Below, one piece after another: positions 8,740-54,471 of a stretch of DNA of 64,000 nucleotides. A program made the position numbers and the translations under genes. Below the pieces are notes generated by a model that was not told the DNA's origin, did no database searches, and saw nothing but the letters and a program-made list of their open reading frames with translations. This DNA comes from Psilocybe cubensis (Eukaryota): NCBI GenBank assembly GCA_017499595.2, contig CM039010.1:2108001-2172000 (forward strand). Reading direction: 5' to 3'. Position 1 is the stretch's first letter. Each line of letters starts with the position of its first letter.

Positions 8740-11700
8740 ATGTGCAATGAGATTTGATCTCTGTTATGTTGACTGTATTACCGACGTCGACAGTCATTGT
8801 AGAAGACCGAATGTGCAAATTTGACAACTTGCACGCGCGCATGTGTGGGTGGGCGGTCGTCTTGGTTGCTACAATCTATTCTTGTCTCTTTTTCTGAGCA
8901 GCCCACAATAGCGAAGCTGCTCGTCTAGAAAATCATAGACGTAAGAAGCAGAGGTAAACAAAACCTCGTTACTCTGACAATAGTCCATTAAGCAATACGT
9001 CAGTTGCGTCAAAGTACCTCCAAATCGCCACTCGATATTCAGCCTTCAGGTGTGCGTTATTTAACGCTGGTAGTGAATTTGGACTGACTCGGGTACGCAC
9101 TGGGAAAGTAACAATGACGTTTTCAGCGGCAGGTAAACGATACATGTTGCCAAATTAGAGTCGCCTCCAAGTGAAATGTGGTGCGCAGAACCACGCCGAA
9201 GGGAGCACAGAGCCACATAGGCAATCGTCCAGAGTCAAAGGGACAGACTGACGGAAAGGTCTCAGAGGAAACTTATAGTTCTGGCTTCCGACATCAGGGA
9301 CTCCAGGATTCGTGAAAAGAGAATAGAGGGAGAAAGTAGGATGGTACCGAGCAGAAACAAGCTCAATCTCAAAATCTCCATCCTCTGCTCTATCACTCTA
9401 GCTCCAGTCTCAAGTTTGAGCTACCCAGATCAGGCGGAGGTGGTGGGATATGTCACAGGCAGAAGTTGGAGGATGAGGGGGAGGGGGAAGAGCCAGAGGA
9501 CGCAAAACAGAGTTCATCTCTGGTAATGCTGAGCAGATGCCCATGCTAAAGACAAAAGTTGGCGTGGAGAACATAAATATGTACTCATGCCAAGCCTCGT
9601 ACTGCGCCACCTGGTCTCATCTCACAATTCGCGATTCATAACCCAGGGCATAAAATTTTGGAACGGTAGGTTCCCTGCGTGCGTTTCAGGTTGATGATTG
9701 AGAGTGTCCGGTCCGGGCCTTCTTAAGACTTCCTAACGGCATAACAGATGTAACGAGGAATGGCCAGTATCAGTGCTGTAGCCATCGTTCGCTAGGATGG
9801 GCACGGCGGCGGCGGTAGTGGTGGTGGTGGTGGTGGTGGTGGGTTGTGGGTGGCTGGTGCTGTTTCGTTCAACTTGAATGCAGTTACCACGGTCATGTGA
9901 GGTTGTTGATAATTGACCGGGAGCAGTACGCCCACTTCTCAGGCTGAATTATCGTGGACTGTGGGTCAATTTGGGGTCAATGTCTTATGCGTCATCTGCT
10001 TACTGGTTATAGCACCCTTAATCTTTGTCTGAGCCTCAAGTCAAACGACACCCTGTGCGCATCCCACTTCAAGGAGATGGGCGCTGCGTAAGAGCGGCCC
10101 TCGTCATCGAGGCGCCGTTTGCAGATTGAACTGCCATCCAACGCGTTCGTCGTAAACTTGTTCAACAAAGTACCTCCTCATGCTTCGGGTGCCGCAGGAC
10201 TCAGTTGTGCGGAGAAGGTATAATCGCGTGTTTGGGCTGCTTGGTGTTGGTCAAGGAGCCTGACTCACGCGGCAAAGCAAAACTTATGTCAATGGCAAGG
10301 GTAATGACAATGCTCACGCGCGATTGACGTTGAGATCTTGGGACGTTGTGTAGATCTATGGCCGACGCCGTCCATTGCCTCAATAGATGTGACACGGCGC
10401 CCACGACGTCCCATAACAAGCACGAACGCCGATTCCAATGCGACGAGCAAGTTCGCGTCGCGTCACACTTCCTTCCCTTGTCGTGGTGTGGTGGGCAGTT
10501 TCGCTTCCGTATTTTCCTCACCCCGGGTCGTAAATTTTGGGGTAGGATATGAGCAAAAGGTAAGATGAACTTGTTGTTTGTCACTCCATTTCTGAGTCGC
10601 CCCTCGCGTCGTACGCGTCGCACTTGTGCGTGGTAGATAATATGATCAGAACGCACCCGGTCTCTCTCTCTGTTCCCGATGCCGTTTATCGCCCAATAGG
10701 TACCTAGAGCGGCGCCCGAACCAAACCCGATCCATTTTGTATTGTTTGGAGTTTCCCCGACTGCGGGTCGCGTTGCGTTGCGTTGCAGAGCAGCTCAGCA
10801 GGAGTAGGGTAGTTGGCTGTGGGTTGTACAAAGAAGGTGAGTGCATGCTACATTCAATACCGCCTATACAGTCACTCATTTTCATATTGATAAGACATAT
10901 GTGCAGTGAGATATGTACGATCCCCCATGTGCTAGCCCTATCCGGTATCCCTCATGCTATCGGTCGTTGTTTTGTCACGCTCAGTCCTTTTCAAAAAGCA
11001 CCCTTGGGATTTCACTTTGCATTGCGACGTCCTGCTTGTGCATCAGTAACTGCAAGTGAGTTCTATCCCGATGTGGACAACACAAAGTGTACCACAGGTT
11101 GTTTCAGGTGCCTTAATCGTTCGCGTCGTGTTGGGGTCGTGTTGGGCCCCGCGTTGGGTGTCATGACCGTGTCCTCTCATGTCCATATCCTATCATGTCT
11201 GTGTTGAGCTCGCGTCGTCTCGTGTCATTTCAAGTATGCGTCAGGTCTACATGTTATGCTCGCGTTGGTGTCGGACACGTTAAGCATTATATTTTGTTGG
11301 ATTTTTGTGTTGGATTTTGTGTGGGTCGGGCATGTGTCACGTTGAAGTTGTGCTGCGTGGCTGAAATAAAAAGTGGGTTTCTGTTCCTTCAGATATCCCA
11401 CATCCACAACGTGCCGGCCCAGAAATACTCAGGCATGGGAATGCGCTGGTGGTTTTGTAGAAGGGATATGTCGCATGTCACACCCGAACCGTCATAGTAT
11501 GCCGCTGCGCACCGCATGGTGCCATTTCCCTACTAGTCCGCGTGCCCCTCTTCGAACACGCACTTCCGAATTGCCAGAGGTTTTTCCGGAAAATCCTCTC
11601 TCTCTGGTTCCCATATCCTCACTTCTCAAAAGAGCTATCAAGAAGGGTAAAACCCCAGGTGACTGTGACACCCTTTCCCCTCCGTGGTCGAGCCAAATTA

Positions 11701-11916
11701 CCTCTAGTATCGGAACCACCCGGAAAAAATGCAGGCTCTAAGCTCTATGTTTTTATCCGGGAAACACACCGATGCCAGCTGATACCAGGGCACCGGGACA
11801 GGCTTTCACGGTGCCTCTTACTACCCAACTCGAAGTTGTCTCGAATCGTGTACATTTCTCTCTCGCACTTCATTGAAGTGTTCTCTGCATGCTTGCTTCT
11901 TTCAAATCGCTTACAC

Positions 11917-14900
11917 GTTCTATAGCGAACTCCCTGTGACCTGGGGACCCGGTCACCCGCTTTGGGTCACCGGGAATGATTAGCTAAGCTTAGTCAGCCG
12001 CGGCTTTTGTTGACTTTCCCTTTCGTTTTCTTACTCGTCCCTTCACCTCCATTCCGCTCGCTGGGACCCGCCCCTCGATCGCTCGCCGCTCGTCACTCCC
12101 AGGTCACCAATGTTTGGCGCGACTTCGACCGCTCAGGTCACAAGAATTTCGACCCCCGACGCCGTCCTTTGCCTCAATAGGTAGCTTGAACGGCCGCCCT
12201 CGACTCGATCCGGATGGGATGGAGTCTCCTCGCTACTGCGCGTTGCGTCGCGTTGCTAGCAGGGCATCGTGTGGGTGAGAAGTAGCTATGTGCAAAAACG
12301 GTGAGTTGAGTGCAACAATTGCGTATTCTTCAACACTACTGAGATCATTTACACCATGGGGGATTCAACGTGGGGGGCAAATTTCCACACGATGCGCGTC
12401 GCGTCGCGTCGCATTGCACTTCTCTCTTGTGAGCAATTCATTTTCTTTTTCTATCTCTGCTACTACTCCTTTGAACGTTGACCCGCTGATTACCCAACCC
12501 CCTCGATAGGTAATCCCAATGTGCACCATGCGCAACATGGCGCCCTCCACGTTCCAAAAAGAGCTTACGCAGATTCCAATGTGATTCATGTCGCGTTGCG
12601 TTGTACTTCTCTCCCGCGCTGTGACAGTGGAGTGTTTGTCGGTACAGACTCGACGTCGAAGTCACTTTGCGTCGCACTTTTCTCCCTTGGAAGGTGAGCG
12701 GAACTCATTCGGTCCTTCTGTTCGTCTTGACATATATTTTCCTATTTGACGCTATTGTTCAGCACGGACAATGCTCTGCGTCCCACAGTGGTGTCTGATT
12801 GAGTTGGATTTAGGCTCGCGCTGGGAGTATACAAGTTTGTGAGTGCTCTTTTCTCTTTTCATTTCTGCCTGGCGGCGCACCAGGAATCCTTTAGCATGCA
12901 GGTTCTCTTCCATGCTTTCTTATTTGCTGACCAACCCCTCTCTGTTTTGTTTTCTGCCAAATGGATCCACGCAAGGCTCAATTGATCAATGCGGATGCGG
13001 AGTTGATGGATTTGACACACAAGGCGCGTATACCAATTTCTCTTATCGCTTCAACTTAACTGGATCCCCTCTTCTTCTCCCCCCTGCGGCGTGTTCCCCT
13101 CATTATCTTTACCCCGCCTGTTGTCACCCCCGCTCTGCCCGCCAGCAAACACCTGCAATGTCACATACAGTGCTGCAGTTAAGCATTAAAACCTAGGAAA
13201 CTGGTGAAGGAGATTTCTGCGGTAGACCGCGCTCTCTAGTCCCTTTATTCCTCCTCTTTATTTTTGAATCTCTGAGCCACATGACACATGGGCAATCCAG
13301 GAATTTTCAGGCATGGAAATACACTGGAATTGCCCATAGTTTCTCACCTGCTTCCTTTCCCACATCATTATACCCCGCCTACCTTGGTCTGCCGCACATA
13401 TTTTTCCGCTTAAATTGAGTTATACCCATGGCTTGGACAACTTTATGCCGCCGACTTTATGCGTGGCTACCATTTTTTACTGCTGTGCAAATCTACCCCG
13501 TGAGAGCGTGCACATTCCATTGTCATTATCTGTTTCTGTGTGATTTGCCCATCGAGTCTTGAGTTGCATATCAGACAGCATAGAATAATGTGGTAGTAAC
13601 TATACATAACACTTCGACTAAGTAGAGTAGCAGTAAATACAACTAAGTCAAGTCAATGATTGAGTATTCAGTTTGAGGCACTGAGAATAGATTGGTTTTC
13701 AAGATAGAGCCAGATGTCTTTTCATGATCAGAATCTTCTGTCAAGTCGATGACATTGGGATCAATCAACAGGGATTGAGTTGTTGAAGATATACCCTTCT
13801 GAATAGTCCGTTATTGATTAACATCAATTTGATATGTTCAAGGCCTACCATCATATGGTCCAAGGCTTTGAGAATTTGAAATACAGCAGTATTGGGTTGC
13901 AAGAGAGGTGCTTAAAATCAAAATTAAAGGATTAAAAGAAGAGTTTAAACGAGAGCAAGCTGCATAGCTGTCGTAGCATTAAGTATTCATTATTACTTTG
14001 TTATTTGAAACTTTACAATTATGATTGTCTGCGGCTACTCTGTCTGTGCATAAATATATGCAAACCATAAAAAATATACTAGAACCAGTCAAGTACATAA
14101 GTAAGAGCATTAAAAATACCAATCAATAGTTATAAGTTATCATGTTTGGCCTTTTTTAGAGGACGACGAGGAGCTACAGCTTTTTTCCGCTTGGTTGGTT
14201 GAGCTTCCACCTCCTTTTGCAAAGATGCAGCCTCCCGCTTTAATTTGATATGTTTTGTAAGGGCTGAAAGTCCCTTTAATTGTTTGTCTTGCTGCCCTAG
14301 AATGTCAAGTTCATCAATGATTGCAAGTGGAGAGACCTTGCGATTATGAGCTTCTGAGTCAATATACTCAGGTATTTCTCGGAATCGCTGCCAGAATTTG
14401 CGGTCCTATGCTTTCCGTAAGTACTTGAATCATATTAATATCAAATTTCCCTACTTTGGATGAAATTCCGCTTTGCCAACTTTTGAGATGCTTGCCCTCG
14501 GAATTGAGTGATCCAAAATGTCGTTCCACCTCACGTAGAGGTGGCTTGATAGCTGTCTGATTACCATCTGCATCATTTACCCCCTCACCAACACTCCAGC
14601 ATGCCCATTGATCATGAAGGTTATATTTATCGAGTGTTTTTGATGGCTTCCAGCAGTCCCATAAATGCTCGGGTTGCTTGATAAGAGCAAATACTTGGTT
14701 CCATGTCACAGATGTCTGTCCAAAGACTGGAGGCCAAAAGAATTGAGGCTGACCTGTATTTATAAATCTGTATTTAGCAAATGTATATATCATAAAAGCA
14801 ATGACTTACCCTGTTCTGTGAAAGCAGACGCACTTGGTAGCACTAAATCAACCTGTGAATGCTTCCGGCGGATGGTACATGTTGGGGTTTTTGGAGATCC

Positions 14901-17900
14901 ATTTGCAAATGCTCGGAACTCTCCATTTTCAGCCATATACACACCAGTGTCATCGTTTTCACTATTATAAAATGGTAGATTTGCCGCAGTTGTAGCACTT
15001 TCAAGTGTTTCATGAGCGACTGTTGTGAGCTGCAGCGCAGGAAGTGGCTTATGCACTGCAGCTGAAAAAAAAGCCAATAAGGATTAAAGATGATGTGAAG
15101 CAGCTTTGTGACGCACATGTTGATGCTGTAGCCATTCTAGATGAGTAGTGAGTCGCTGAATACCCCTTTGCTGGTGATAACACTTGAGTACGCTGCTCAA
15201 CTATCTTCTGAATTCGAGCAACTTCAGCTAATTGAACACTTTGTGATGCAAGTAAAGATCGAGTTTCTTCAAGGGCAAGTTGAAGAAGCTGATTCTGGAT
15301 CCGCTGGAGATCAACCCTACTTCCTGCATTCGCTTTCAACACAGAAAAATCACTTGGAAACTGGTGCTTCATCCAATTCTGGACGTCTTGTTGAGCAAAC
15401 GCTGGAAGCCGGAATAGTGCTGAGTCCGGTACTTCTTGAAAGATGGCAGCACCACACTAAAGCAGAATATTTAATACAATGCTGCATAGTTAATGAAACT
15501 CTTACCTGGAATAGATAGGGACGTAGCTCCATAACCATTGACCAGTAGTTAGCTGCTCCAGACAAATTTTGCCGTCCAACAACATCCGAATATATTGTCT
15601 CAGCCATTGGGCATACAAGATGGAGAAAAATCTCAGGGACATGGACATGACGCCAAATAGGGTCATACACCTCATGAGCTTTATATCCATGTGCACCGAG
15701 TACAGCCTATTATGTACACATCCGGTTAGTAAGTCTTTGAATAATAAAGAGAAAAGTTCACCTCTTTTGGAAGTGCTGGTGCATAGGTGTCATAATATGT
15801 CTCTCCTCGTACCCATCCCATTCGGGACGTTACAGAGGGATCAACACTAACTCAAGATAAGTTATTAAGCATTGAACTAAATATATTTGAGCTTACCCCA
15901 TACGCTCTTGATTATATCCAAGAATATGGCGTGGTAGATATGCTTTTAAATGTGATGTGAATTCAGCAAAAGAAAATGCCTTGACGTAGAGATTGTACAG
16001 GCTTTGCTCATGGTATGGCGTTGCATATGACTTCTTGCCATGTAGAACACGTACTTGTCGCCAGGTTTTATTGATTGACCAGTTAATATCCAATGCTGAT
16101 GTGATATCAATAACATCATGAAGGAAATGATGATAAAAAGCGAATGCTCCCAGTGGGCATTTAACTGGATCAAGGTGGGCAATGAATACACTATACACCG
16201 GATTAACTTTCTGAATAGTGTAGATAATATATCAGATAGGGACAAGTGAATTGAGAGCTTAAATTTACCGTTCTCATCCCTCTGCTAGCACCCGCCTTCT
16301 CTTCTCCTTGACATCCCAGAACACACGGAATGGCAGTCTCTTTATTTGGATGAAGAAAGACATATGGCTGCAGCTCAGCCAGTCGAAGCGCTCGGAAATC
16401 ATCTCCACGGTTTCCTGACGCATTTTGTGCAGTCCAGCTCAAATGACCATTGATAACCGAACGTACTAGAGAACATTGTCAAATTATTACCAAAAGATTC
16501 AAAAAGTTACTCACACTCTCGATGCATAAGAAAGCCTTTTCCAACACTGTTCATCTGCGCTTCTGTGATTCCGGAGAGAAATGTATTGGCAACAATGTCC
16601 GGTGCATCCTCTTCGGGTATGAGGCCTCTGATAATATGGAATTAGTAACTTATAATCAGTGTAGCAGATTAAAAAGAAACAGACTCTCGAGCCCGTCGAA
16701 GAGCTTCATTCATACGACCTTTAAGTGCATCCCAAACATGGACATTGGTTGCTGGGCGCTGCTGGGAAAGACTGGGGTCTTTGGCTTCTTGCTCTTTACG
16801 GATACGAAGTGCACCAAAATATAGTTTCTTAATGTGTGACTGAGAATCAATGTAAGTTTTATGCATGGCCTAATACACTGATATCCGGACTTACCGCGCC
16901 AATAAATGTACCAGGTATGTCAATACCTTTGCGTGTTCGCTTTGGTCTCTCGGCACAGTACCGAATATACAATAGTAAATGGTGGGCGTCAACAATTTCG
17001 TCTTTGATTTGACCTGTCTTCAAGGCATGGCCACAAAAGATCTGAAACGTATTCAAGTTAGATTGGAATATGTATACATAGACTTAGCCAATGACCTTCC
17101 AGTCTTTAATAACCGCATTTTGAGTCTTAACTCCACCCGCTCGTCGATTATTCTCTGCACGTCTCGTCTCCTCAAGCCGGATCCGAGTTTGAAATTTGGT
17201 GTAACTTTCGCCTGGAAAAGGTCCACCTTGCATTTGAGTCTCCAAGTCAAATTCACTGTCGTCTTCAAGGGCTGTGTGGGCTAGGAGCTCGTCGTTGATC
17301 TCAAGAACCTCTTGAAATTCGTCCTCAGGATCACTATCACTATCATCGTCGTACCCAAGAACCTCCTCAGCAGCAGCACCTTCAATACCAAATTCTTGAA
17401 TGAGGATTTCGTCATTATTTCCTCTCAATACGGACATTGATGTGCCAACATATTGCGAGCTAGAAGATGGTAGCTCAGCAACTTGAGCATCAGGAATTGA
17501 TTCCTCCGTGACAACTGGAGGAAACCTGTTAATGCAACCCAATAAAATACTAAGTATAATAGAATATAATTAAAATATGTGCCACATACCAGTAGTCCGT
17601 CAACATTGTTCGAAGATGCTCCAAATTTGCACTCTTAGGTGGTGCTAAATTAGCATCAATACATGCTTCGCGAAGTGGCTCTTTCCGTCGTATAGAAGCT
17701 AGCCTAGACATGTACTGAGCGCGGGATATATTGATAACACCATTGTTGTTGGTCGTGGGGATTGTAATTTCAGCATGTTGAGCTTGCTTAGAAGACTCGG
17801 TGCGAGATATGTGCAGTGCCGAGTTGTCATTGGCAACTAACAACCTTGAATTCAAAGCCTGAGTATCGTTTATTGGAGACTGCATTGGTTTACTCAGAGA

Positions 17901-18298
17901 TTTTTGAACGAGAGTGGGGGAAACTGTATATTCATAAGACATTTTATAGAGTACATTCTTTTATTATCTTGTACTAGTTGAGTTCAACGATGGGCCACTG
18001 GAGCGATGTAGAATGGACACTCACCAAAGGAAAATAACCGGTCATTTCACGTTGAATGGCACTCATGATTGACTCATGAGTTTGGCCAGTGTTGTGCGCA
18101 TATTGGCCAGTGCCACTGAAGGCCACAGAAATAAATCAATGGCGGCACATACCCACAGTGTCCGGTGCAGGTTGCGATGCTCACTGCATGCCTCAGTGAA
18201 AGTCACCCAGCTCTGTGACCCAGGGCCAAATTTGTGCGGCAGGTCACAAAATGTCTGTGACCTGCGCCCAAGGAATGCCACGGGGGTCTCCTTGTTCT
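11917..18298 (-). mobile_element. Crypton copy 1
   Basis: Bounded by ttacac|GTTCT|atagcg and ctcctt|GTTCT|atagcg. Confidence 0.9.
14130..17942 (-). CDS. Crypton tyrosine recombinase (Ndc10/CryptonF-like YR plus GCR1_C-like domain), copy 1, catalytic His changed to Tyr
   Basis: About 13 exons spliced by hand: ASGNRGDDFR (R), GEEKAG (K), HLDPVKCPLGAFAFY, KAYLPRH (HxxR altered), SRMGWVRGETYYDTY (W and Y; exon absent from the ORF track), QWACWSVG..IKPPLREVERHFG..W (GCR1_C-like), basic tail KRKK..RRPLKKAK, stop at 14130-14132. Confidence 0.85.
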
Positions 18299-21200
18299 AT
18301 AGCGAACTCCCTGTGACCTGGGGACCCGGTCACCCGCTTTGGGTCACCGGGAATGATTAGCTAAGCTTAGTCAGCCGCGGCTTTTGTTGACTTTCCCTTT
18401 CGTTTTCTTACTCGTCCCTTCACCTCCATTCCGCTCGCTGGGACCCGCCCCTCGATCGCTCGCCGCTCGTCACTCCCAGGTCACCAATGTTTGGCGCGAC
18501 TTCGACCGCTCAGGTCACAAGAATTTCGACCCCCGACGCCGTCCTTTGCCTCAATAGGTAGCTTGAACGGCCGCCCTCGACTCGATCCGGATGGGATGGA
18601 GTCTCCTCGCTACTGCGCGTTGCGTCGCGTTGCTAGCAGGGCATCGTGTGGGTGAGAAGTAGCTATGTGCAAAAACGGTGAGTTGAGTGCAACAATTGCG
18701 TATTCTTCAACACTACTGAGATCATTTACACCATGGGGGATTCAACGTGGGGGGCAAATTTCCACACGATGCGCGTCGCGTCGCGTCGCATTGCACTTCT
18801 CTCTTGTGAGCAATTCATTTTCTTTTTCTATCTCTGCTACTACTCCTTTGAACGTTGACCCGCTGATTACCCAACCCCCTCGATAGGTAATCCCAATGTG
18901 CACCATGCGCAACATGGCGCCCTCCACGTTCCAAAAAGAGCTTACGCAGATTCCAATGTGATTCATGTCGCGTTGCGTTGTACTTCTCTCCCGCGCTGTG
19001 ACAGTGGAGTGTTTGTCGGTACAGACTCGACGTCGAAGTCACTTTGCGTCGCACTTTTCTCCCTTGGAAGGTGAGCGGAACTCATTCGGTCCTTCTGTTC
19101 GTCTTGACATATATTTTCCTATTTGACGCTATTGTTCAGCACGGACAATGCTCTGCGTCCCACAGTGGTGTCTGATTGAGTTGGATTTAGGCTCGCGCTG
19201 GGAGTATACAAGTTTGTGAGTGCTCTTTTCTCTTTTCATTTCTGCCTGGCGGCGCACCAGGAATCCTTTAGCATGCAGGTTCTCTTCCATGCTTTCTTAT
19301 TTGCTGACCAACCCCTCTCTGTTTTGTTTTCTGCCAAATGGATCCACGCAAGGCTCAATTGATCAATGCGGATGCGGAGTTGATGGATTTGACACACAAG
19401 GCGCGTATACCAATTTCTCTTATCGCTTCAACTTAACTGGATCCCCTCTTCTTCTCCCCCCTGCGGCGTGTTCCCCTCATTATCTTTACTCCGCCTGTTG
19501 TCACCCCCGCTCTGCCCGCCAGCAAACACCTGCAATGTCACATACAGTGCTGCAGTTAAGCATTAAAACCTAGGAAACTGGTGAAGGAGATTTCTGCGGT
19601 AGACCGCGCTCTCTAGTCCCTTTATTCCTCCTCTTTATTTTTGAATCTCTGAGCCACATGACACATGGGCAATCCAGGAATTTTCAGGCATGGAAATACA
19701 CTGGAATTGCCCATAGTTTCTCACCTGCTTCCTTTCCCACATCATTATACCCCGCCTACCTTGGTCTGCCGCACATATTTTTCCGCTTAAATTGAGTTAT
19801 ACCCATGGCTTGGACAACTTTATGCCGCCGACTTTATGCGTGGCTACCATTTTTTACTGCTGTGCAAATCTACCCCGTGAGAGCGTGCACATTCCATTGT
19901 CATTATCTGTTTCTGTGTGATTTGCCCATCGAGTCTTGAGTTGCATATCAGACAGCATAGAATAATGTGGTAGTAACTATACATAACACTTCGACTAAGT
20001 AGAGTAGCAGTAAATACAACTAAGTCAAGTCAATGATTGAGTATTCAGTTTGAGGCACTGAGAATAGATTGGTTTTCAAGATAGAGCCAGATGTCTTTTC
20101 ATGATCAGAATCTTCTGTCAAGTCGATGACATTGGGATCAATCAACAGGGATTGAGTTGTTGAAGATATACCCTTCTGAATAGTCCGTTATTGATTAACA
20201 TCAATTTGATATGTTCAAGGCCTACCATCATATGGTCCAAGGCTTTGAGAATTTGAAATACAGCAGTATTGGGTTGCAAGAGAGGTGCTTAAAATCAAAA
20301 TTAAAGGATTAAAAGAAGAGTTTAAACGAGAGCAAGCTGCATAGCTGTCGTAGCATTAAGTATTCATTATTACTTTGTTATTTGAAACTTTACAATTATG
20401 ATTGTCTGCGGCTACTCTGTCTGTGCATAAATATATGCAAACCATAAAAAATATACTAGAACCAGTCAAGTACATAAGTAAGAGCATTAAAAATACCAAT
20501 CAATAGTTATAAGTTATCATGTTTGGCCTTTTTTAGAGGACGACGAGGAGCTACAGCTTTTTTCCGCTTGGTTGGTTGAGCTTCCACCTCCTTTTGCAAA
20601 GATGCAGCCTCCCGCTTTAATTTGATATGTTTTGTAAGGGCTGAAAGTCCCTTTAATTGTTTGTCTTGCTGCCCTAGAATGTCAAGTTCATCAATGATTG
20701 CAAGTGGAGAGACCTTGCGATTATGAGCTTCTGAGTCAATATACTCAGGTATTTCTCGGAATCGCTGCCAGAATTTGCGGTCCTATGCTTTCCGTAAGTA
20801 CTTGAATCATATTAATATCAAATTTCCCTACTTTGGATGAAATTCCGCTTCGCCAACTTTTGAGATGCTTGCCCTCGGAATTGAGTGATCCAAAATGTCG
20901 TTCCACCTCACGTAGAGGTGGCTTGATAGCTGTCTGATTACCATCTGCATCATTTACCCCCTCACCAACACTCCAGCATGCCCATTGATCATGAAGGTTA
21001 TATTTATCGAGTGTTTTTGATGGCTTCCAGCAGTCCCATAAATGCTCGGGTTGCTTGATAAGAGCAAATACTTGGTTCCATGTCACAGATGTCTGTCCAA
21101 AGACTGGAGGCCAAAAGAATTGAGGCTGACCTGTATTTATAAATCTGTATTTAGCAAATGTATATATCATAAAAGCAATGACTTACCCTGTTCTGTGAAA

Positions 21201-24200
21201 GCAGACGCACTTGGTAGCACTAAATCAACCTGTGAATGCTTCCGGCGGATGGTACATGTTGGGGTTTTTGGAGATCCATTTGCAAATGCTCGGAACTCTC
21301 CATTTTCAGCCATATACACACCAGTGTCATCGTTTTCACTATTATAAAATGGTAGATTTGCCGCAGTTGTAGCACTTTCAAGTGTTTCATGAGCGACTGT
21401 TGTGAGCTGCAGCGCAGGAAGTGGCTTATGCACTGCAGCTGAAAAAAAAAGCCAATAAGGATTAAAGATGATGTGAAGCAGCTTTGTGACGCACATGTTG
21501 ATGCTGTAGCCATTCTAGATGAGTAGTGAGTCGCTGAATACCCCTTTGCTGGTGATAACACTTGAGTACGCTGCTCAACTATCTTCTGAATTTGAGCAAC
21601 TTCAGCTAATTGAACACTTTGTGATGCAAGTAAAGATCAAGTTTCTTCAAGGGCAAGTTGAAGAAGCTGATTCTGGATCCGCTGGAGATCAACCCTACTT
21701 CCTGCATTCGCTTTCAACACAGAAAAATCACTTGGAAACTGGTGCTTCATCCAATTCTGGACGTCTTGTTGAGCAAACGCTGGAAGCCGGAATAGTGCTG
21801 AGTCCGGTACTTCTTGAAAGATGGCAGCACCACACTAAAGCAGAATATTTAATACAATGCTGCATAGTTAATGAAACTCTTACCTGGAATAGATAGGGAC
21901 GTAGCTCCATAACCATTGACCAGTAGTTAGCTGCTCCAGACAAATTTTGCCGTCCAACAACATCCGAATATATTGTCTCAGCCATTGGGCATACAAGATG
22001 GAGAAAAATCTCAGGGACATGGACATGACGCCAAATAGGGTCATACACCTCATGAGCTTTATATCCATGTGCACCGAGTACAGCCTATTATGTACACATC
22101 CGGTTAGTAAGTCTTTGAATAATAAAGAGAAAAGTTCACCTCTTTTGGAAGTGCTGGTGCATAGGTGTCATAATATGTCTCTCCTCGTACCCATCCCATT
22201 CGGGACGTTACAGAGGGATCAACACTAACTCAAGATAAGTTATTAAGCATTGAACTAAATATATTTGAGCTTACCCCATACGCTCTTGATTATATCCAAG
22301 AATATGGCGTGGTAGATGTGCTTTTAAATGTGATGTGAATTCAGCAAAAGAAAATGCCTTGACGTAGAGATTGTACAGGCTTTGCTCATGGTATGGCGTT
22401 GCATATGACTTCTTGCCATGTAGAACACGTACTTGTCGCCAGGTTTTATTGATTGACCAGTTAATATCCAATGCTGATGTGATATCAATAACATCATGAA
22501 GGAAATGATGATAAAAAGCGAATGCTCCCAGTGGGCATTTAACTGGATCAAGGTGGGCAATGAATACACTATACACCGGATTAACTTTCTGAATAGTGTA
22601 GATAATATATCAGATAGGGACAAGTGAATTGAGAGCTTAAATTTACCGTTCTCATCCCTCTGCTAGCACCCGCCTTCTCTTCTCCTTGACATCCCAGAAC
22701 ACACGGAATGGCAGTCTCTTTATTTGGATGAAGAAAGACATATGGCTGCAGCTCAGCCAGTCGAAGCGCTCGGAAATCATCTCCACGGTTTCCTGACGCA
22801 TTTTGTGCAGTCCAGCTCAAATGACCATTGATAACCGAACGTACTAGAGAACATTGTCAAATTATTACCAAAAGATTCAAAAAGTTACTCACACTCTCGA
22901 TGCATAAGAAAGCCTTTTCCAACACTGTTCATCTGCGCTTCTGTGATTCCGGAGAGAAATGTATTGGCAACAATGTCCGGTGCATCCTCTTCGGGTATGA
23001 GGCCTCTGATAATATGGAATTAGTAACTTATAATCAGTGTAGCAGATTAAAAAGAAACAGACTCTCGAGCCCGTCGAAGAGCTTCATTCATACGACCTTT
23101 AAGTGCATCCCAAACATGGACATTGGTTGCTGGGCGCTGCTGGGAAAGACTGGGGTCTTTGGCTTCTTGCTCTTTACGGATACGAAGTGCACCAAAATAT
23201 AGTTTCTTAATGTGTGACTGAGAATCAATGTAAGTTTTATGCATGGCCTAATACACTGATATCCGGACTTACCGCGCCAATAAATGTACCAGGTATGTCA
23301 ATACCTTTGCGTGTTCGCTTTGGTCTCTCGGCACAGTACCGAATATACAATAGTAAATGGTGGGCGTCAACAATTTCGTCTTTGATTTGACCTGTCTTCA
23401 AGGCATGGCCACAAAAGATCTGAAACGTATTCAAGTTAGATTGGAATATGTATACATAGACTTAGCCAATGACCTTCCAGTCTTTAATAACCGCATTTTG
23501 AGTCTTAACTCCACCCGCTCGTCGATTATTCTCTGCACGTCTCGTCTCCTCAAGCCGGATCCGAGTTTGAAATTTGGTGTAACTTTCGCCTGGAAAAGGT
23601 CCACCTTGCATTTGAGTCTCCAAGTCAAATTCACTGTCGTCTTCAAGGGCTGTGTGGGCTAGGAGCTCGTCGTTGATCTCAAGAACCTCTTGAAATTCGT
23701 CCTCAGGATCACTATCACTATCATCGTCGTACCCAAGAACCTCCTCAGCAGCAGCACCTTCAATACCAAATTCTTGAATGAGGATTTCGTCATTATTTCC
23801 TCTCAATACGGACATTGATGTGCCAACATATTGCGAGCTAGAAGATGGTAGCTCAGCAACTTGAGCATCAGGAATTGATTCCTCCGTGACAACTGGAGGA
23901 AACCTGTTAATGCAACCCAATAAAATACTAAGTATAATAGAATATAATTAAAATATGTGCCACATACCAGTAGTCCGTCAACATTGTTCGAAGATGCTCC
24001 AAATTTGCACTCTTAGGTGGTGCTAAATTAGCATCAATACATGCTTCGCGAAGTGGCTCTTTCCGTCGTATAGAAGCTAGCCTAGACATGTACTGAGCGC
24101 GGGATATATTGATAACACCATTGTTGTTGGTCGTGGGGATTGTAATTTCAGCATGTTGAGCTTGCTTAGAAGACTCGGTGCGAGATATGTGCAGTGCCGA

Positions 24201-24676
24201 GTTGTCATTGGCAACTAACAACCTTGAATTCAAAGCCTGAGTATCGTTTATTGGAGACTGCATTGGTTTACTCAGAGATTTTTGAACGAGAGTGGGGGAA
24301 ACTGTATATTCATAAGACATTTTATAGAGTACATTCTTTTATTATCTTGTACTAGTTGAGTTCAACGATGGGCCACTGGAGCGATGTAGAATGGACACTC
24401 ACCAAAGGAAAATAACCGGTCATTTCACGTTGAATGGCACTCATGATTGACTCATGAGTTTGGCCAGTGTTGTGCGCATATTGGCCAGTGCCACTGAAGG
24501 CCACAGAAATAAATCAATGGCGGCACATACCCACAGTGTCCGGTGCAGGTTGCGATGCTCACTGCATGCCTCAGTGAAAGTCACCCAGCTCTGTGACCCA
24601 GGGCCAAATTTGTGCGGCAGGTCACAAAATGTCTGTGACCTGCGCCCAAGGAATGCCACGGGGGTCTCCTTGTTCT
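18294..24676 (-). mobile_element. Crypton copy 2
   Basis: Both ends are the internal junction ctcctt|GTTCT|atagcg. Confidence 0.9.
20507..24320 (-). pseudogene. Crypton tyrosine recombinase copy 2 with premature stop
   Basis: Same exons as copies 1 and 3 with intact HLPRH. G>A at 21639 turns CGA into TGA (ETRSLL to ET*), removing the GCR1_C-like C-terminus. Confidence 0.8.
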
Positions 24677-27600
24677 ATAGCGAACTCCCTGTGACCTGGG
24701 GACCCGGTCACCCGCTTTGGGTCACCGGGAATGATTAGCTAAGCTTAGTCAGCCGCGGCTTTTGTTGACTTTCCCTTTCGTTTTCTTACTCGTCCCTTCA
24801 CCTCCATTCCGCTCGCTGGGACCCGCCCCTCGATCGCTCGCCGCTCGTCACTCCCAGGTCACCAATGTTTGGCGCGACTTCGACCGCTCAGGTCACAAGA
24901 ATTTCGACCCCCGACGCCGTCCTTTGCCTCAATAGGTAGCTTGAACGGCCGCCCTCGACTCGATCCGGATGGGATGGAGTCTCCTCGCTACTGCGCGTTG
25001 CGTCGCGTTGCTAGCAGGGCATCGTGTGGGTGAGAAGTAGCTATGTGCAAAAACGGTGAGTTGAGTGCAACAATTGCGTATTCTTCAACACTACTGAGAT
25101 CATTTACACCATGGGGGATTCAACGTGGGGGGCAAATTTCCACACGATGCGCGTCGCGTCGCGTCGCATTGCACTTCTCTCTTGTGAGCAATTCATTTTC
25201 TTTTTCTATCTCTGCTACTACTCCTTTGAACGTTGACCCGCTGATTACCCAACCCCCTCGATAGGTAATCCCAATGTGCACCATGCGCAACATGGCGCCC
25301 TCCACGTTCCAAAAAGAGCTTACGCAGATTCCAATGTGATTCATGTCGCGTTGCGTTGTACTTCTCTCCCGCGCTGTGACAGTGGAGTGTTTGTCGGTAC
25401 AGACTCGACGTCGAAGTCACTTTGCGTCGCACTTTTCTCCCTTGGAAGGTGAGCGGAACTCATTCGGTCCTTCTGTTCGTCTTGACATATATTTTCCTAT
25501 TTGACGCTATTGTTCAGCACGGACAATGCTCTGCGTCCCACAGTGGCGTCTGATTGAGTTGGATTTAGGCTCGCGCTGGGAGTATACAAGTTTGTGAGTG
25601 CTCTTTTCTCTTTTCATTTCTGCCTGGCGGCGCACCAGGAATCCTTTAGCATGCAGGTTCTCTTCCATGCTTTCTTATTTGCTGACCAACCCCTCTCTGT
25701 TTTGTTTTCTGCCAAATGGATCCACGCAAGGCTCAATTGATCAATGCGGATGCGGAGTTGATGGATTTGACACACAAGGCGCGTATACCAATTTCTCTTA
25801 TCGCTTCAACTTAACTGGATCCCCTCTTCTTCTCCCCCCTGCGGCGTGTTCCCCTCATTATCTTTACCCCGCCTGTTGTCACCCCCGCTCTGCCCGCCAG
25901 CAAACACCTGCAATGTCACATACAGTGCTGCAGTTAAGCATTAAAACCTAGGAAACTGGTGAAGGAGATTTCTGCGGTAGACCGCGCTCTCTAGTCCCTT
26001 TATTCCTCCTCTTTATTTTTGAATCTCTGAGCCACATGACACATGGGCAATCCAGGAATTTTCAGGCATGGAAATACACTGGAATTGCCCATAGTTTCTC
26101 ACCTGCTTCCTTTCCCACATCATTATACCCCGCCTACCTTGGTCTGCCGCACATATTTTTCCGCTTAAATTGAGTTATACCCATGGCTTGGACAACTTTA
26201 TGCCGCCGACTTTATGCGTGGCTACCATTTTTTACTGCTGTGCAAATCTACCCCGTGAGAGCGTGCACATTCCATTGTCATTATCTGTTTCTGTGTGATT
26301 TGCCCATCGAGTCTTGAGTTGCATATCAGACAGCATAGAATAATGTGGTAGTAACTATACATAACACTTCGACTAAGTAGAGTAGCAGTAAATACAACTA
26401 AGTCAAGTCAATGATTGAGTATTCAGTTTGAGGCACTGAGAATAGATTGGTTTTCAAGATAGAGCCAGATGTCTTTTCATGATCAGAATCTTCTGTCAAG
26501 TCGATGACATTGGGATCAATCAACAGGGATTGAGTTGTTGAAGATATACCCTTCTGAATAGTCCGTTATTGATTAACATCAATTTGATATGTTCAAGGCC
26601 TACCATCATATGGTCCAAGGCTTTGAGAATTTGAAATACAGCAGTATTGGGTTGCAAGAGAGGTGCTTAAAATCAAAATTAAAGGATTAAAAGAAGAGTT
26701 TAAACGAGAGCAAGCTGCATAGCTGTCGTAGCATTAAGTATTCATTATTACTTTGTTATTTGAAACTTTACAATTATGATTGTCTGCGGCTACTCTGTCT
26801 GTGCATAAATATATGCAAACCATAAAAAATATACTAGAACCAGTCAAGTACATAAGTAAGAGCATTAAAAATACCAATCAATAGTTATAAGTTATCATGT
26901 TTGGCCTTTTTTAGAGGACGACGAGGAGCTACAGCTTTTTTCCGCTTGGTTGGTTGAGCTTCCACCTCCTTTTGCAAAGATGCAGCCTCCCGCTTTAATT
27001 TGATATGTTTTGTAAGGGCTGAAAGTCCCTTTAATTGTTTGTCTTGCTGCCCTAGAATGTCAAGTTCATCAATGATTGCAAGTGGAGAGACCTTGCGATT
27101 ATGAGCTTCTGAGTCAATATACTCAGGTATTTCTCGGAATCGCTGCCAGAATTTGCGGTCCTATGCTTTCCGTAAGTACTTGAATCATATTAATATCAAA
27201 TTTCCCTACTTTGGATGAAATTCCGCTTCGCCAACTTTTGAGATGCTTGCCCTCGGAATTGAGTGATCCAAAATGTCGTTCCACCTCACGTAGAGGTGGC
27301 TTGATAGCTGTCTGATTACCATCTGCATCATTTACCCCCTCACCAACACTCCAGCATGCCCATTGATCATGAAGGTTATATTTATCGAGTGTTTTTGATG
27401 GCTTCCAGCAGTCCCATAAATGCTCGGGTTGCTTGATAAGAGCAAATACTTGGTTCCATGTCACAGATGTCTGTCCAAAGACTGGAGGCCAAAAGAATTG
27501 AGGCTGACCTGTATTTATAAATCTGTATTTAGCAAATGTATATATCATAAAAGCAATGACTTACCCTGTTCTGTGAAAGCAGACGCACTTGGTAGCACTA

Positions 27601-30600
27601 AATCAACCTGTGAATGCTTCCGGCGGATGGTACATGTTGGGGTTTTTGGAGATCCATTTGCAAATGCTCGGAACTCTCCATTTTCAGCCATATACACACC
27701 AGTGTCATCGTTTTCACTATTATAAAATGGTAGATTTGCCGCAGTTGTAGCACTTTCAAGTGTTTCATGAGCGACTGTTGTGAGCTGCAGCGCAGGAAGT
27801 GGCTTATGCACTGCAGCTGAAAAAAAAAGCCAATAAGGATTAAAGATGATGTGAAGCAGCTTTGTGACGCACATGTTGATGCTGTAGCCATTCTAGATGA
27901 GTAGTGAGTCGCTGAATACCCCTTTGCTGGTGATAACACTTGAGTACGCTGCTCAACTATCTTCTGAATTCGAGCAACTTCAGCTAATTGAACACTTTGT
28001 GATGCAAGTAAAGATCGAGTTTCTTCAAGGGCAAGTTGAAGAAGCTGATTCTGGATCCGCTGGAGATCAACCCTACTTCCTGCATTCGCTTTCAACACAG
28101 AAAAATCACTTGGAAACTGGTGCTTCATCCAATTCTGGACGTCTTGTTGAGCAAACGCTGGAAGCCGGAATAGTGCTGAGTCCGGTACTTCTTGAAAGAT
28201 GGCAGCACCACACTAAAGCAGAATATTTAATACAATGCTGCATAGTTAATGAAACTCTTACCTGGAATAGATAGGGACGTAGCTCCATAACCATTGACCA
28301 GTAGTTAGCTGCTCCAGACAAATTTTGCCGTCCAACAACATCCGAATATATTGTCTCAGCCATTGGGCATACAAGATGGAGAAAAATCTCAGGGACATGG
28401 ACATGACGCCAAATAGGGTCATACACCTCATGAGCTTTATATCCATGTGCACCGAGTACAGCCTATTATGTACACATCCGGTTAGTAAGTCTTTGAATAA
28501 TAAAGAGAAAAGTTCACCTCTTTTGGAAGTGCTGGTGCATAGGTGTCATAATATGTCTCTCCTCGTACCCATCCCATTCGGGACGTTACAGAGGGATCAA
28601 CACTAACTCAAGATAAGTTATTAAGCATTGAACTAAATATATTTGAGCTTACCCCATACGCTCTTGATTATATCCAAGAATATGGCGTGGTAGATGTGCT
28701 TTTAAATGTGATGTGAATTCAGCAAAAGAAAATGCCTTGACGTAGAGATTGTACAGGCTTTGCTCATGGTATGGCGTTGCATATGACTTCTTGCCATGTA
28801 GAACACGTACTTGTCGCCAGGTTTTATTGATTGACCAGTTAATATCCAATGCTGATGTGATATCAATAACATCATGAAGGAAATGATGATAAAAAGCGAA
28901 TGCTCCCAGTGGGCATTTAACTGGATCAAGGTGGGCAATGAATACACTATACACCGGATTAACTTTCTGAATAGTGTAGATAATATATCAGATAGGGACA
29001 AGTGAATTGAGAGCTTAAATTTACCGTTCTCATCCCTCTGCTAGCACCCGCCTTCTCTTCTCCTTGACATCCCAGAACACACGGAATGGCAGTCTCTTTA
29101 TTTGGATGAAGAAAGACATATGGCTGCAGCTCAGCCAGTCGAAGCGCTCGGAAATCATCTCCACGGTTTCCTGACGCATTTTGTGCAGTCCAGCTCAAAT
29201 GACCATTGATAACCGAACGTACTAGAGAACATTGTCAAATTATTACCAAAAGATTCAAAAAGTTACTCACACTCTCGATGCATAAGAAAGCCTTTTCCAA
29301 CACTGTTCATCTGCGCTTCTGTGATTCCGGAGAGAAATGTATTGGCAACAATGTCCGGTGCATCCTCTTCGGGTATGAGGCCTCTGATAATATGGAATTA
29401 GTAACTTATAATCAGTGTAGCAGATTAAAAAGAAACAGACTCTCGAGCCCGTCGAAGAGCTTCATTCATACGACCTTTAAGTGCATCCCAAACATGGACA
29501 TTGGTTGCTGGGCGCTGCTGGGAAAGACTGGGGTCTTTGGCTTCTTGCTCTTTACGGATACGAAGTGCACCAAAATATAGTTTCTTAATGTGTGACTGAG
29601 AATCAATGTAAGTTTTATGCATGGCCTAATACACTGATATCCGGACTTACCGCGCCAATAAATGTACCAGGTATGTCAATACCTTTGCGTGTTCGCTTTG
29701 GTCTCTCGGCACAGTACCGAATATACAATAGTAAATGGTGGGCGTCAACAATTTCGTCTTTGATTTGACCTGTCTTCAAGGCATGGCCACAAAAGATCTG
29801 AAACGTATTCAAGTTAGATTGGAATATGTATACATAGACTTAGCCAATGACCTTCCAGTCTTTAATAACCGCATTTTGAGTCTTAACTCCACCCGCTCGT
29901 CGATTATTCTCTGCACGTCTCGTCTCCTCAAGCCGGATCCGAGTTTGAAATTTGGTGTAACTTTCGCCTGGAAAAGGTCCACCTTGCATTTGAGTCTCCA
30001 AGTCAAATTCACTGTCGTCTTCAAGGGCTGTGTGGGCTAGGAGCTCGTCGTTGATCTCAAGAACCTCTTGAAATTCGTCCTCAGGATCACTATCACTATC
30101 ATCGTCGTACCCAAGAACCTCCTCAGCAGCAGCACCTTCAATACCAAATTCTTGAATGAGGATTTCGTCATTATTTCCTCTCAATACGGACATTGATGTG
30201 CCAACATATTGCGAGCTAGAAGATGGTAGCTCAGCAACTTGAGCATCAGGAATTGATTCCTCCGTGACAACTGGAGGAAACCTGTTAATGCAACCCAATA
30301 AAATACTAAGTATAATAGAATATAATTAAAATATGTGCCACATACCAGTAGTCCGTCAACATTGTTCGAAGATGCTCCAAATTTGCACTCTTAGGTGGTG
30401 CTAAATTAGCATCAATACATGCTTCGCGAAGTGGCTCTTTCCGTCGTATAGAAGCTAGCCTAGACATGTACTGAGCGCGGGATATATTGATAACACCATT
30501 GTTGTTGGTCGTGGGGATTGTAATTTCAGCATGTTGAGCTTGCTTAGAAGACTCAGTGCGAGATATGTGCAGTGCCGAGTTGTCATTGGCAACTAACAAC

Positions 30601-31054
30601 CTTGAATTCAAAGCCTGAGTATCGTTTATTGGAGACTGCATTGGTTTACTCAGAGATTTTTGAACGAGAGTGGGGGAAACTGTATATTCATAAGACATTT
30701 TATAGAGTACATTCTTTTATTATCTTGTACTAGTTGAGTTCAACGATGGGCCACTGGAGCGATGTAGAATGGACACTCACCAAAGGAAAATAACCGGTCA
30801 TTTCACGTTGAATGGCACTCATGATTGACTCATGAGTTTGGCCAGTGTTGTGCGCATATTGGCCAGTGCCACTGAAGGCCACAGAAATAAATCAATGGCG
30901 GCACATACCCACAGTGTCCGGTGCAGGTTGCGATGCTCACTGCATGCCTCAGTGAAAGTCACCCAGCTCTGTGACCCAGGGCCAAATTTGTGCGGCAGGT
31001 CACAAAATGTCTGTGACCTGCGCCCAAGGAATGCCACGGGGGTCTCCTTGTTCT
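24672..31054 (-). mobile_element. Crypton copy 3
   Basis: Right boundary ctcctt|GTTCT|ctcaac returns to unique sequence. Confidence 0.9.
26885..30698 (-). CDS. Crypton tyrosine recombinase copy 3, apparently intact
   Basis: NRGDD, EEKAG, KAHLPRH, MGW, YYDTY and PPLREVERHFG..WR all present; no stop seen in the predicted exons. Confidence 0.85.
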
Positions 31055-36331: not shown

Positions 36332-37692
36332 TCAATCCTCCAGCCTCTACCTCTGTCTCATCTCCTCAACAAGCACTCTCGCCTCTCTAATCCTACCCGA
36401 GTTCATATAAAGCCGCGATATCGCGCCGAGCATAACCCCATAGGTCTGCGTCCCATCAAACCCTCACTCACCAGCTCCTTCCGGAACACCTTCAACTCTC
36501 TAACAACGCCCTCATCCACCTTCTTCCCCCAGCCACTGGTTTTCTTGCCCACCCAAGCCTCGCTCATCCGGCGATACGCCTCGACGTGCGTGGCAAACTC
36601 TCTGCGCAGTGTATCGGACGTGGGTGAAGCGTGTATACACGCGCGACACGTGCATGTGAATGCGTAAGGCACGAGTGCGGCGCGTCGTACGGAGACGGGG
36701 AAGTAAACAGGGCAGTAGCAGTGCAAGAGCTGTTTTCCCGCTTTGATTCCCCGCGCGGCGCGTATATGGAACACGAAGGAGGCGAGGTCGATGCGGGAGC
36801 GGTTGTTGGGCATTTAGCTTTGTTTCCGATATCCAATTTAAATAGTTCGGTTTGGTATATGCGTGCCTGTGGTTTATCCGTGCTACGATCTTGTATACGG
36901 CTGTGTACGCTTTGTCCGTCCCCTTCCTTTCGTTGCCTAGTTCCCGGTAACCAGCCCGCATGAGGCCCATTGTGATGGCCAGCACATCCTCAATATCGCG
37001 CGCGAGCGCGGTGCTATCACTGTTGATATCCAAAGCGCTGGCTGGTTTTCCTATCGCGTGAAGCCGGCTGTTGATGACTGGGATCACGATCAGCGGCCGC
37101 TCGGCGAACATTAGCGCGCCTGCATTAATGTTGTGCGTCGCAAACACGCCTAGCCCCATCTCTCTCTTATGCGCCTCTGTATCGCCCGTCTCATATGCCA
37201 CACTCAAGGCTTGCACTCTCGGAAGCGCTTGGATACTCCGGCGCGTTCAATACGCGCGTCTGCGCGTCCCCCCAGCGCAGTCCACTCACTATACCCACCC
37301 GCAGGCCTGTCTTGTACGTGTCACATTTGGAGTGTTTTTAAGTTGATGGGGGTACCGGGAGTGGTATTGGTAGTTGATGTGGGTGATCGCTTTACGATAG
37401 GGTCTGTGATAAAGTAAATGGATGAAGAGGATAGATGGGGTGGGTATAAGCGCTGCTCGGAATTGTGAAGTGAGGAGCTGGATGTGGATGTACCGATATC
37501 ACCGTTCTGGTCCTTCAACTTCGCCTCTAAATCCACCTTTACCTTCGTATGCGCATGCTCATCGACGTCTCCATCAATCCAAACATCCTCTATCCCGAGC
37601 GCGTGCTCATTCAACCCATTTTTAGCATTCGCTTTCCCATTCTTGGCTTTTGCGTTCGTGTCACCTTCCCCCTTCTCAGACGTATTCCCCAT
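36332..37692 (-). pseudogene. SET-domain lysine methyltransferase pseudogene (paralogue of 55746-56966)
   Basis: GLGVFATHNINAGALMFAERPLIV, ARINH, IRAARGIKAGKQLLHCY, YAFTCTCRAC. Frameshift near EGL(D)G, deletion of the LANCH..RTNG block and an altered acceptor before CMPN relative to the intact paralogue. 5' end approximate. Confidence 0.75.
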
Positions 37693-48227: not shown

Positions 48228-48534
48228 ATAAGATATATTTCGCTCGGATTAAATTGCACTTTTTCGGAATGTGCTAAATTTGAGTAGAAGTGAAAGGAGG
48301 AGAAGGTGACAGAATATCCGAGTTATCTGATATTCCGTGGGTGCGTAGGGCTTTGGCGGGTGGTCAGGAAAGACCAAGTGAAGGTCACGAGAAATGACCG
48401 GATTCGAAGTGAGACACGCAAAGCGCGAGTCGTGAGGAAACGAAAGCGAGGAGAAAGGTTTAGCCGCCAAAGGCCTGAGCGCTTGGATCGAACCACGTGG
48501 AAATCGCAAACGAGAACCAACGGTGGCAGTACCA
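48228..48534 (-). repeat. Split direct repeat B2 (307 bp)
   Basis: Appears identical to 48873-49179. Confidence 0.9.
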
Positions 48535-48572
48535 AACACTGGAAAAAGGAAAGAAAAGGGAGAGGAGGGTGG

Positions 48573-53040: not shown

Positions 53041-53041
53041 A

Positions 53042-54466: not shown

Positions 54467-54471
54467 GGCGA

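Follow-up and report, generated by a model that had tools for sequence, protein, structure and literature searches.

How does a transposon with a single recombinase gene and no terminal inverted repeats (TIRs) come to stand as three perfect head-to-tail copies, each joined to the next at its own terminal core? The question is raised by a 64,000-nucleotide stretch of the mushroom Psilocybe cubensis (GenBank assembly GCA_017499595.2, contig CM039010.1, positions 2,108,001 to 2,172,000 of the forward strand), referred to here as the window and numbered from its first letter. Between positions 11917 and 31054 it holds a tandem array of an element with the features of a Crypton, a DNA transposon that encodes a tyrosine recombinase (YR). 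To our knowledge, most of what is inferred about Crypton movement comes from the ends of dispersed copies, and a single study has observed it happening. In the available portion of the article PMC3212892, Cryptons are described as lacking TIRs, as carrying terminal direct repeats of 4-6 bp that are taken as recombination substrates, and as proposed to move in the form of circles.

The array probably reflects a single CryptonF-like insertion at a GTTCT target, followed by recombinase-mediated amplification in place to three head-to-tail copies. The layout of the units, the ends of related elements and the differences between the copies all bear on this reading and on its rivals.

Three units joined without a spacer

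Repeat search and alignment resolve positions 11917-31049 into three head-to-tail units, all oriented on the minus strand: unit 1 at 11917..18293 (6377 bp), unit 2 at 18294..24671 (6378 bp) and unit 3 at 24672..31049 (6378 bp), with start-to-start spacings of 6377 and 6378. Since 31050 - 11917 = 19133 = 6377 + 6378 + 6378, the array consists of exactly three whole units with zero spacer, plus one extra core. Spacing, alignment lengths and this arithmetic all agree with the three-unit layout proposed in the first-pass annotation, a reading made from the letters of the window. Pairwise identity between units is 99.91-100%. A unit used as a BLAST query finds three places only in the window, at 100, 99.92 and 99.91% identity, and a tblastn search of the 64-kb window with 43 related proteins placed none of its 1068 segments outside the array.

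Both borders of the array and both internal junctions carry the 5-bp core GTTCT. The left border (core at 11917..11921) reads ttacac-GTTCT-atagcg, and in gene orientation its core, there AGAAC, forms the 3' end of the element. The right border (core at 31050..31054) reads ctcctt-GTTCT-ctcaac and is the 5' end in gene orientation. Both internal junctions, with cores at 18294..18298 and 24672..24676, read ctcctt-GTTCT-atagcg; the context of the second is identical to that of the first, the order at each is 3' terminal block, core, 5' terminal block, and the second lies within a stretch that is invariant between units. These sequences were re-read letter for letter as first annotated. A layout of units and cores this precise is far beyond chance. 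The allele lacking the element is predicted to read ttacacGTTCTctcaac.

The three units differ at eight columns, made up of seven substitutions and one A8/A9 run. Every change is private to one unit: unit 1 has three, including the intronic A8 run at 15064, unit 2 has three substitutions and unit 3 has two, so that the pairwise differences are 6, 5 and 5. Examples of unit-specific alleles lie at 14474, 15940, 21593, 21639, 25547 and 30555. All seven substitutions are transitions, and four of them convert CpG to TpG or CpA, although CpG makes up only 7.3% of unit positions (P for at least four of seven, 8e-4). On sequence grounds, this pattern is the signature of methylated-cytosine deamination rather than of assembly error, and the A8/A9 difference, a homopolymer within an intron, may be a sequencing error. 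Private, CpG-biased transitions of this kind indicate that the three copies are real and have been evolving apart, and they are the best evidence for this within the window itself. The CpG content of one unit (18294-24671) is also uneven. The observed/expected ratio is 1.18 in the first 500 bp (GC 0.57), drops to about 0.5-0.65 in most of the tail and in the two-thirds of the gene nearest its 3' end, and climbs to 0.8-0.96 near the 5' end of the gene. The profile would fit methylation-driven decay of much of the body, with the terminal block protected or younger.

Four sequencing runs were mapped on 9900-18293, covering one unit and the left flank. In contigs from an independent study (X1), the flank contig has a depth of 41.1 and stops 30 nt inside the element, and the element contigs, with depths of 85.6, 98 and 101.3, begin at 11917 and finish 5 letters past 18293. 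The core is thus the exact branch point of the assembly graph, and there is more than one copy of the element. The X1 contig carries the majority allele at all eight variable places, which fits either three units having popped bubbles or the ancestral sequence. Run X7, represented by a small share, gave only 151-198-bp pieces at a depth of 2-3, identical to the element and lacking flank, and is uninformative. A joint in X1 from 13327 to 14368 (side 26) was not trusted, for it sits on a 31-bp repeat found genome-wide. This 31-bp word lies at 13297-13327 in the tail, and at the same place in units 2 and 3; its depth is 350 in X1, runs X9 and X10 have about 48 reads of it, and loose ends occur to either side.

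One recombinase gene in a CryptonF-like element

Each unit holds one tyrosine-recombinase gene on the minus strand, and the three genes are in different states. The gene of unit 3 (26885..30698) is intact. Spliced against P0001, a 1053-aa hypothetical protein recorded as Psilocybe cubensis, it gives 13 exons and 12 introns of 49-64 nt (as measured in this unit), and its product is identical to P0001. The gene of unit 1 (14130..17942; 13 exons, 1053 aa) carries R956Q and H556Y, the latter in the conserved HxxRH motif, and its recombinase therefore lacks a conserved active-site histidine. The gene of unit 2 (20507..24320) carries R746Q and a stop at codon 731 (R731*), downstream of the Ndc10-II domain and upstream of a GCR1_C-like C-terminus, so that its product is truncated ahead of the C-terminal region. 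An intact recombinase is thus left in unit 3 only. With two of its three recombinase genes damaged, the array would seem to be no longer young or fully active.

Assignment to the tyrosine recombinases begins with Pfam, where NDC10_II was the sole match above the curated cut-off for nine open reading frame (ORF) pieces of the unit, the others being weak and below cut-off. The 112-aa minus-strand piece that matches NDC10_II retrieves 43 Agaricales proteins, the best of them P0001 at 99% identity; other P. cubensis proteins follow at 97% (P0002) and 77% (P0004). Compared at full length, P0001 and P0002 have 92% identity, and their records place them on contigs that differ in length. In P0001 the domain covers residues 418-690 (E 8e-11, above the Pfam curated cut-off), and it is matched by all 28 aligned relatives. 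Among these 28, K456 and W581 are invariant, and R424, H556, R559, H560, Y587 and Y591 are nearly so. The conserved R..K..HxxRH..W..Y residues can be read as the tyrosine-recombinase catalytic set, the acting arginine and tyrosine being assigned by motif. R419, in the motif GNRGDD, is a candidate for the first catalytic arginine by motif and is absent from the conserved alignment columns.

An AlphaFold model of the recombinase (mean pLDDT, the predicted local distance difference test score, 65) finds its best PDB matches in Ndc10 (1e-7), Cre (1e-3) and Flp (7e-3); a sequence search of the PDB gave no match. At the C-terminus of P0001 the GCR1_C match is weak and below threshold (E 0.12, 13.1 bits against a cut-off of 23). 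GCR1_C is found in 14 of the 28 aligned relatives at E <=0.1, with a best value of 3e-5, and the C-terminal region of P0001 can be aligned with theirs.

These features point to a Crypton. The element encodes a tyrosine recombinase, judging from the NDC10_II match, the fold matches and the conserved catalytic set, and it has no reverse transcriptase or other transposase, unlike DIRS, Ngaro and MarCry. It likewise lacks TIRs and long terminal repeats and ends in a short direct repeat within the 4-6 bp range. Each border carries the 5-bp GTTCT, neither of the termini (GTTCTATAGCG... and ...GGGTCTCCTT) is an inverted copy of the other, and inverted features are limited to subterminal GTGACC motifs. 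At the level of the family, common termini are seen with unrelated flanks across loci; the exact element is known from the array alone. The call of a Crypton, made at first sight, thus stands on one intron-rich Ndc10-II/tyrosine-recombinase gene, the lack of a reverse transcriptase or TIRs, and a short terminal direct repeat.

Within the Cryptons, the array element appears to belong to the CryptonF-like YR DNA transposons. Goodwin et al. are said to have described CryptonF elements of fungi and oomycetes in 2003. The array element resembles them in its single intron-containing YR gene, its lack of TIRs or long terminal repeats, its similarity to Ndc10 domain II and its terminal direct repeats of 4-6 bp; its family also has the GCR1_C-type C-terminus, found in half of the aligned relatives. 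It differs in standing as a perfect three-copy head-to-tail array, in the defined AGAAC core with GGTCAC repeat blocks of its family, and in the XPG_I-domain gene carried by its relatives. CryptonF is defined as a recombinase plus GCR1_C in the available part of Kojima and Jurka 2011 (PMC3212892), and the words 'XPG' and 'nuclease' do not occur in that part.

The XPG_I-domain gene, which resembles FEN1-like nucleases, lies in the relatives on the same strand as the recombinase gene, between it and the 3' terminus. It was located at L012:5364-6722, L018:4496-5569, L001:13598-14668, L032:4440-5798 and L029:9929-11311, and also in L014, L030 and L025, these being loci on metagenome contigs. In 8 of 28 annotated relatives the recombinase model includes the XPG_I domain as a fusion. 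No XPG_I gene is present in the window's element. At the corresponding place, from the gene to the 3' terminal block, it has a tail of about 2 kb (18520..20506 in unit 2), in which there is no ORF longer than 117 aa, no homology to the relatives, no Rfam family and no tRNA. In Mycena venus, the near-identical recombinase-plus-XPG models P0015 and P0016 have consecutive locus tags on one contig and are 93-100% identical in ungapped segments; they may be a second tandem Crypton pair.

Family termini and a candidate recombination site

Whether the GTTCT core belongs to the element or only to this locus can be judged from related copies. Forty-three related loci from metagenome contigs were scanned with a recombinase protein alignment, and their coordinates are given in gene orientation, in which GTTCT reads AGAAC. 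For the 3' end, an anchor that does not include the core, GTGACC-N28-GTGACC (in the array at 12102/12136), was followed in four of four loci by GGTCAC-N14-AGAAC at a distance of 160-215 nt, and in all four all similarity ends after AGAAC. A pattern that requires a core-like word, and is therefore a biased selection, added four 3' ends (L017, L029, L032 and L039). The close relatives L029 and L032 diverge exactly after AGAAC, and within one subfamily the copies L029, L032, L035 and L037 part at the core and differ from there on. All nine rows of alignment A3 (seven loci and the array element twice) have AGAAC unchanged, and there is no conservation beyond it.

The 5' ends were sought by [GC]AGACCCC and then GTCAC, with the core not required, which gave 15 loci, to which L011 was added from the anchor search. 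The count excludes L001 8099, L016 9436, L018 5505 and L041 1863, which lack the conserved continuation, and L034 is cut by its contig end. All 16 ends continue as NNG-[GC]AGACCCC. The five bases before the NNG spacer are AGAAC in 3, GGAAC in 7, GGACC in 2, and GGAAT, GGATC, GTACC and TGAGC in 1 each, so that RGAAC is found at 10 of 16. Upstream of the 5' core there is no conservation (alignment A2). Five loci with both ends span 6.6-9.7 kb, compared with 6.38 kb in the array. Their 3' core is AGAAC in every case and their 5' core is GGAAC in 3, GGAAT in 1 and GGACC in 1, leaving a common repeat of GAAC in three of the five. A constant 3' core and a variable 5' core suggest that the element carries the 3' copy along when it moves and takes the 5' copy from its target. 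The target rule of the family would then be RGAAC, and the 5-bp repeat of the array may be 4 bp plus one matching base.

The first-pass annotation had held GTTCT to be the crossover core and had allowed that other copies with different ends and no such core would point to ordinary segmental duplication. This alternative is not borne out, given eight 3' ends that all read AGAAC and RGAAC at 10 of 16 5' ends. As a core of the whole family GTTCT holds for the constant 3' copy but not for the variable 5' copy, where the repeat common to both ends reduces to GAAC in three of the five two-ended loci.

Raw reads labelled as the same species give a second view of the end at 11917. Runs X9 and X10 lack this element at 95% identity but hold its first 45 bp in about 120 reads, compared with about 30-35 expected for a single copy (about fourfold). 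Loose ends fall exactly before 11917 in 51 and 47 reads, with a consensus agreement of 0.56 and 0.55, which corresponds to several different neighbours, and a further locus reads ...CACAG-GTTCTATA (25 and 37 reads). The metagenome loci and the X9 and X10 reads agree in marking 11917 as the end of a multi-copy family.

These two runs are almost without reads at 95% identity over the outer left flank (9900-11300) and most of the element, and they cover 11300-11916 with five fixed differences. The strains are strongly diverged or rearranged at the array locus. Two stretches of the left flank, at 10362-10477 and 10675-10792, resemble unit positions 239-699 (in the tail, just inside the terminal block) on the same strand, with 69-82% similarity. 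These matches score 55, 45 and 40 bits, compared with at most 31 in 30 block shuffles, and X1 shows small rearrangement joints there. An inverted relic of the 5' block in the tail or left flank was considered and dropped, as BLAST found no match.

The sequences that flank the core have an organization of their own. The 5' terminal block in gene orientation (18212..18293) has GGAGACCCCC beside the core and a third GTGACC at 18215, an arrangement kept in relatives, and it includes a perfect 10-bp palindrome, GCAGGTCACA-N7-TGTGACCTGC, at 18239-18265. The 3' terminal block (18299..18519) has five GTGACC/GGTCAC sites, at 18313, 18328, 18342, 18479 and 18513; its GTGACC pair spaced at 34 bp and its GGTCAC-N14-core layout are conserved in relatives. 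The palindrome, the 34-bp pair and the core-adjacent block GGAGACCCC recur in relatives that share only 35-68% of the protein. Across the window GTGACC occurs 40 times, compared with 25.7 expected. Twenty-four of the 40 sites lie within 80 bp (on one side) or 225 bp (on the other) of the unit borders, there are none in the remaining ~6 kb of each unit, and all 12 exact matches to TGTGACCTG fall in the same border zones. The idea that the arms form a dyad about the core (GTYYSC ... GSAGAC) was dropped, as it held at about 7 of 13 positions by eye.

The GTGACC-type repeats are putative binding sites for the protein of the element, and the internal junction would unite both halves into a complete candidate site. 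Given that the unit borders are the termini of the family, each internal junction equals the predicted junction of a circle, and the proposal that the array preserves the circle junction follows from this match.

How the array arose

The favoured reading starts from a CryptonF-like YR transposon that would have inserted once at a GTTCT target. Recombination at its own site would then have duplicated it. In one route, an excised circle would enter either a resident end, with the core and one proper arm, or a junction, where the site is complete; in the other, two sister chromatids would exchange, the left end of one with the right end of its partner. Each internal junction would be a rebuilt site, with the 3' terminal block, AGAAC core and 5' terminal block in the order expected of an excised circle. 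The third copy could have come by either recombinase route or by ordinary unequal crossing-over between 6.4-kb repeats. The copies would later have gathered private C-to-T type changes, mostly at CpG, with damage to two of the three recombinase genes. We infer the circle, the role of the recombinase in the duplication and the binding of protein to the GTGACC repeats. The argument for an enzyme lies in the breakpoints, both of which fall to the base on family-conserved termini, making duplication without a site-specific enzyme very unlikely.

Several points weigh against this account. A first duplication made by the recombinase looks the same as one that arose at the 5-bp repeat through microhomology or replication, and the pairwise differences of 6, 5 and 5 fit a single-step origin as well as stepwise growth. 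The ratio of element to flank depth in X1 is 2.1-2.5, not 3; the read-depth check proposed at the outset thus upholds more than one copy and falls short of threefold, contig depth not being a copy number. The depth in X1 also suggests few or no copies of this exact element elsewhere. No read or contig across a junction or the whole array was seen in the mapping, which covered one unit and the left flank, no empty site appeared among the loose ends listed (18 of 46), and no circle was observed. The metagenome loci gave no tandem junctions, end overlaps or 3'-to-5' junctions, which short-read assemblies could hardly show. In the AlphaFold model, the active-site loops have a pLDDT below 50.

The array could also have been made with no recombinase at all, if slippage or microhomology repair between the flanking GTTCTs gave a dimer and unequal crossing-over then gave a trimer. 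The junction sequence would be the same, unequal crossing-over works well between repeats of 6.4 kb, damage now affects two of the three recombinase genes, and dispersed copies of the exact element are not evident. The breakpoints nevertheless coincide to the base with family-wide termini, and 5-bp microhomologies are so many in the region that exact coincidence is unlikely without an enzyme. An origin of this kind is doubtful, if quite conceivable.

One-step integration at GTTCT of a trimeric circle, made of monomers joined by the recombinase or by concatemer copying, would account for identical junctions and for units that are equidistant, with two or three private changes each, as simultaneous origin predicts. 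Eight differences nevertheless give this comparison little power, and neither a monomeric nor a multimeric circle was observed. No replication function is known for the element, and it lacks the second gene that its relatives carry. We consider integration of a trimer improbable.

It would be more surprising still if the array were an artefact of assembly, with a true locus of one or two units whose repeat was over-expanded or onto which dispersed copies were stacked. Such an error gains some room from the X1 depth ratio and from the lack of a spanning read among the data examined. It is at odds with private substitutions that are all transitions and four of seven at CpG, unlike long-read errors, the A8/A9 run alone resembling a possible error, and with the X1 contigs, which indicate more than one copy and whose graph has its branch point exactly at the core. 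The remaining suggestion of the first-pass annotation, replicative amplification like that of Flp on the 2-micron plasmid, in which the recombinase inverts a replication fork, has nothing in its favour beyond a recombinase of the same superfamily and can practically be dismissed, as it requires a replicating circle that carries two full sites in inverted orientation and all sites in the array are direct, the sole inverted features being short GTGACC motifs.

Recombinase-mediated amplification in place, the reading preferred here, has parallels in other systems. In tandem prophages and tandem arrays of SXT-type integrative and conjugative elements (ICEs), a YR-integrating circle enters a resident attachment (att) site and leaves head-to-tail copies with junctions like attP. 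These elements are prokaryotic, with long specific att sites and directionality factors, whereas the Psilocybe array is found in a mushroom and its target shares only a 4-5-bp core with the element. DIRS and Ngaro are eukaryotic elements that encode a YR and are thought to integrate from a circle, and they have split repeats that imitate the junction of one. Their replication passes through RNA and uses a reverse transcriptase, whereas the Crypton unit has no such gene.

Elsewhere in the window, on the minus strand at 48228-54766, there is a set of split direct repeats (A1 48228-48527, B1 48568-48867, A2 48873-49172 and B2 54467-54766) in a layout that we take to be that of Ngaro-type retrotransposons. 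The repeats enclose long minus-strand ORFs that resemble, by eye, gag, reverse transcriptase/RNase H and tyrosine recombinase, and the region has a strong purine skew; Pfam gave no match at E 0.01 for the ORFs at 49-55 kb. Two further minus-strand ORF sets, at 36403-37246 and 55746-57062, share long near-identical peptides such as ...PYAFTC.C.AC.HASPTSDTLRREFAT.VEAYRRMS... and look like a duplicated host gene; two ORFs tested from these sets had no Pfam match at E 0.01.

The closest comparison is with the first active Cryptons reported, according to the available part of Lopez-Cortegano et al. 2023 (PMC9977147). There, CryptonF-1_cRei of Chlamydomonas reinhardtii is described as ending in CACCG and targeting CAYCG, as excising cleanly and as having gained copies for reasons left unexplained. 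A 5-bp terminal word and a near-identical target are shared with the array family, which has AGAAC at its end and RGAAC at the target side. CryptonF-1_cRei differs, in the part of the article available, in having been seen moving in mutation-accumulation lines with dispersed copies, whereas the array copies stand at one locus with two of three genes damaged.

A full-text literature search, with subscription journals and supplements outside its scope, found no tandem Crypton array, no Psilocybe Crypton and no Crypton with an XPG gene. What is described here is a new member of the Crypton family in an arrangement that this search did not find in print, and not a new kind of element; the circle model and targeting by a short core have already been published (PMC3212892, PMC9977147).

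A bolder possibility, which we hold only tentatively and think unlikely, is that the array is a working launch pad. Its junctions would release monomer circles without emptying the locus, and the circles would prefer to re-enter there. Such a launch pad would be a mode by which Cryptons raise their copy number, and would explain the copy gain described for Chlamydomonas in the available part of PMC9977147. The family would also be a two-gene mushroom Crypton lineage, not found described in the search, with a recombinase, an XPG/FEN-like nuclease, and a lox-like site made of an AGAAC core and GGTCAC arm repeats.

At its more modest strength, the array lends support to the long-proposed circle model of Crypton movement. 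With base-exact joints on family termini, it preserves the sequence that an excised circle would have. The comparison of relatives contributes the target rule RGAAC, as it appears from their ends, and a recurrent second gene, an XPG-type nuclease. The locus offers an experimenter one intact enzyme copy beside a full candidate recombination site, which comprises the core, the flanking blocks and the GTGACC motifs repeated in them. The candidate site would allow a simple recombination assay and a test of tandem copies as a source of circles.

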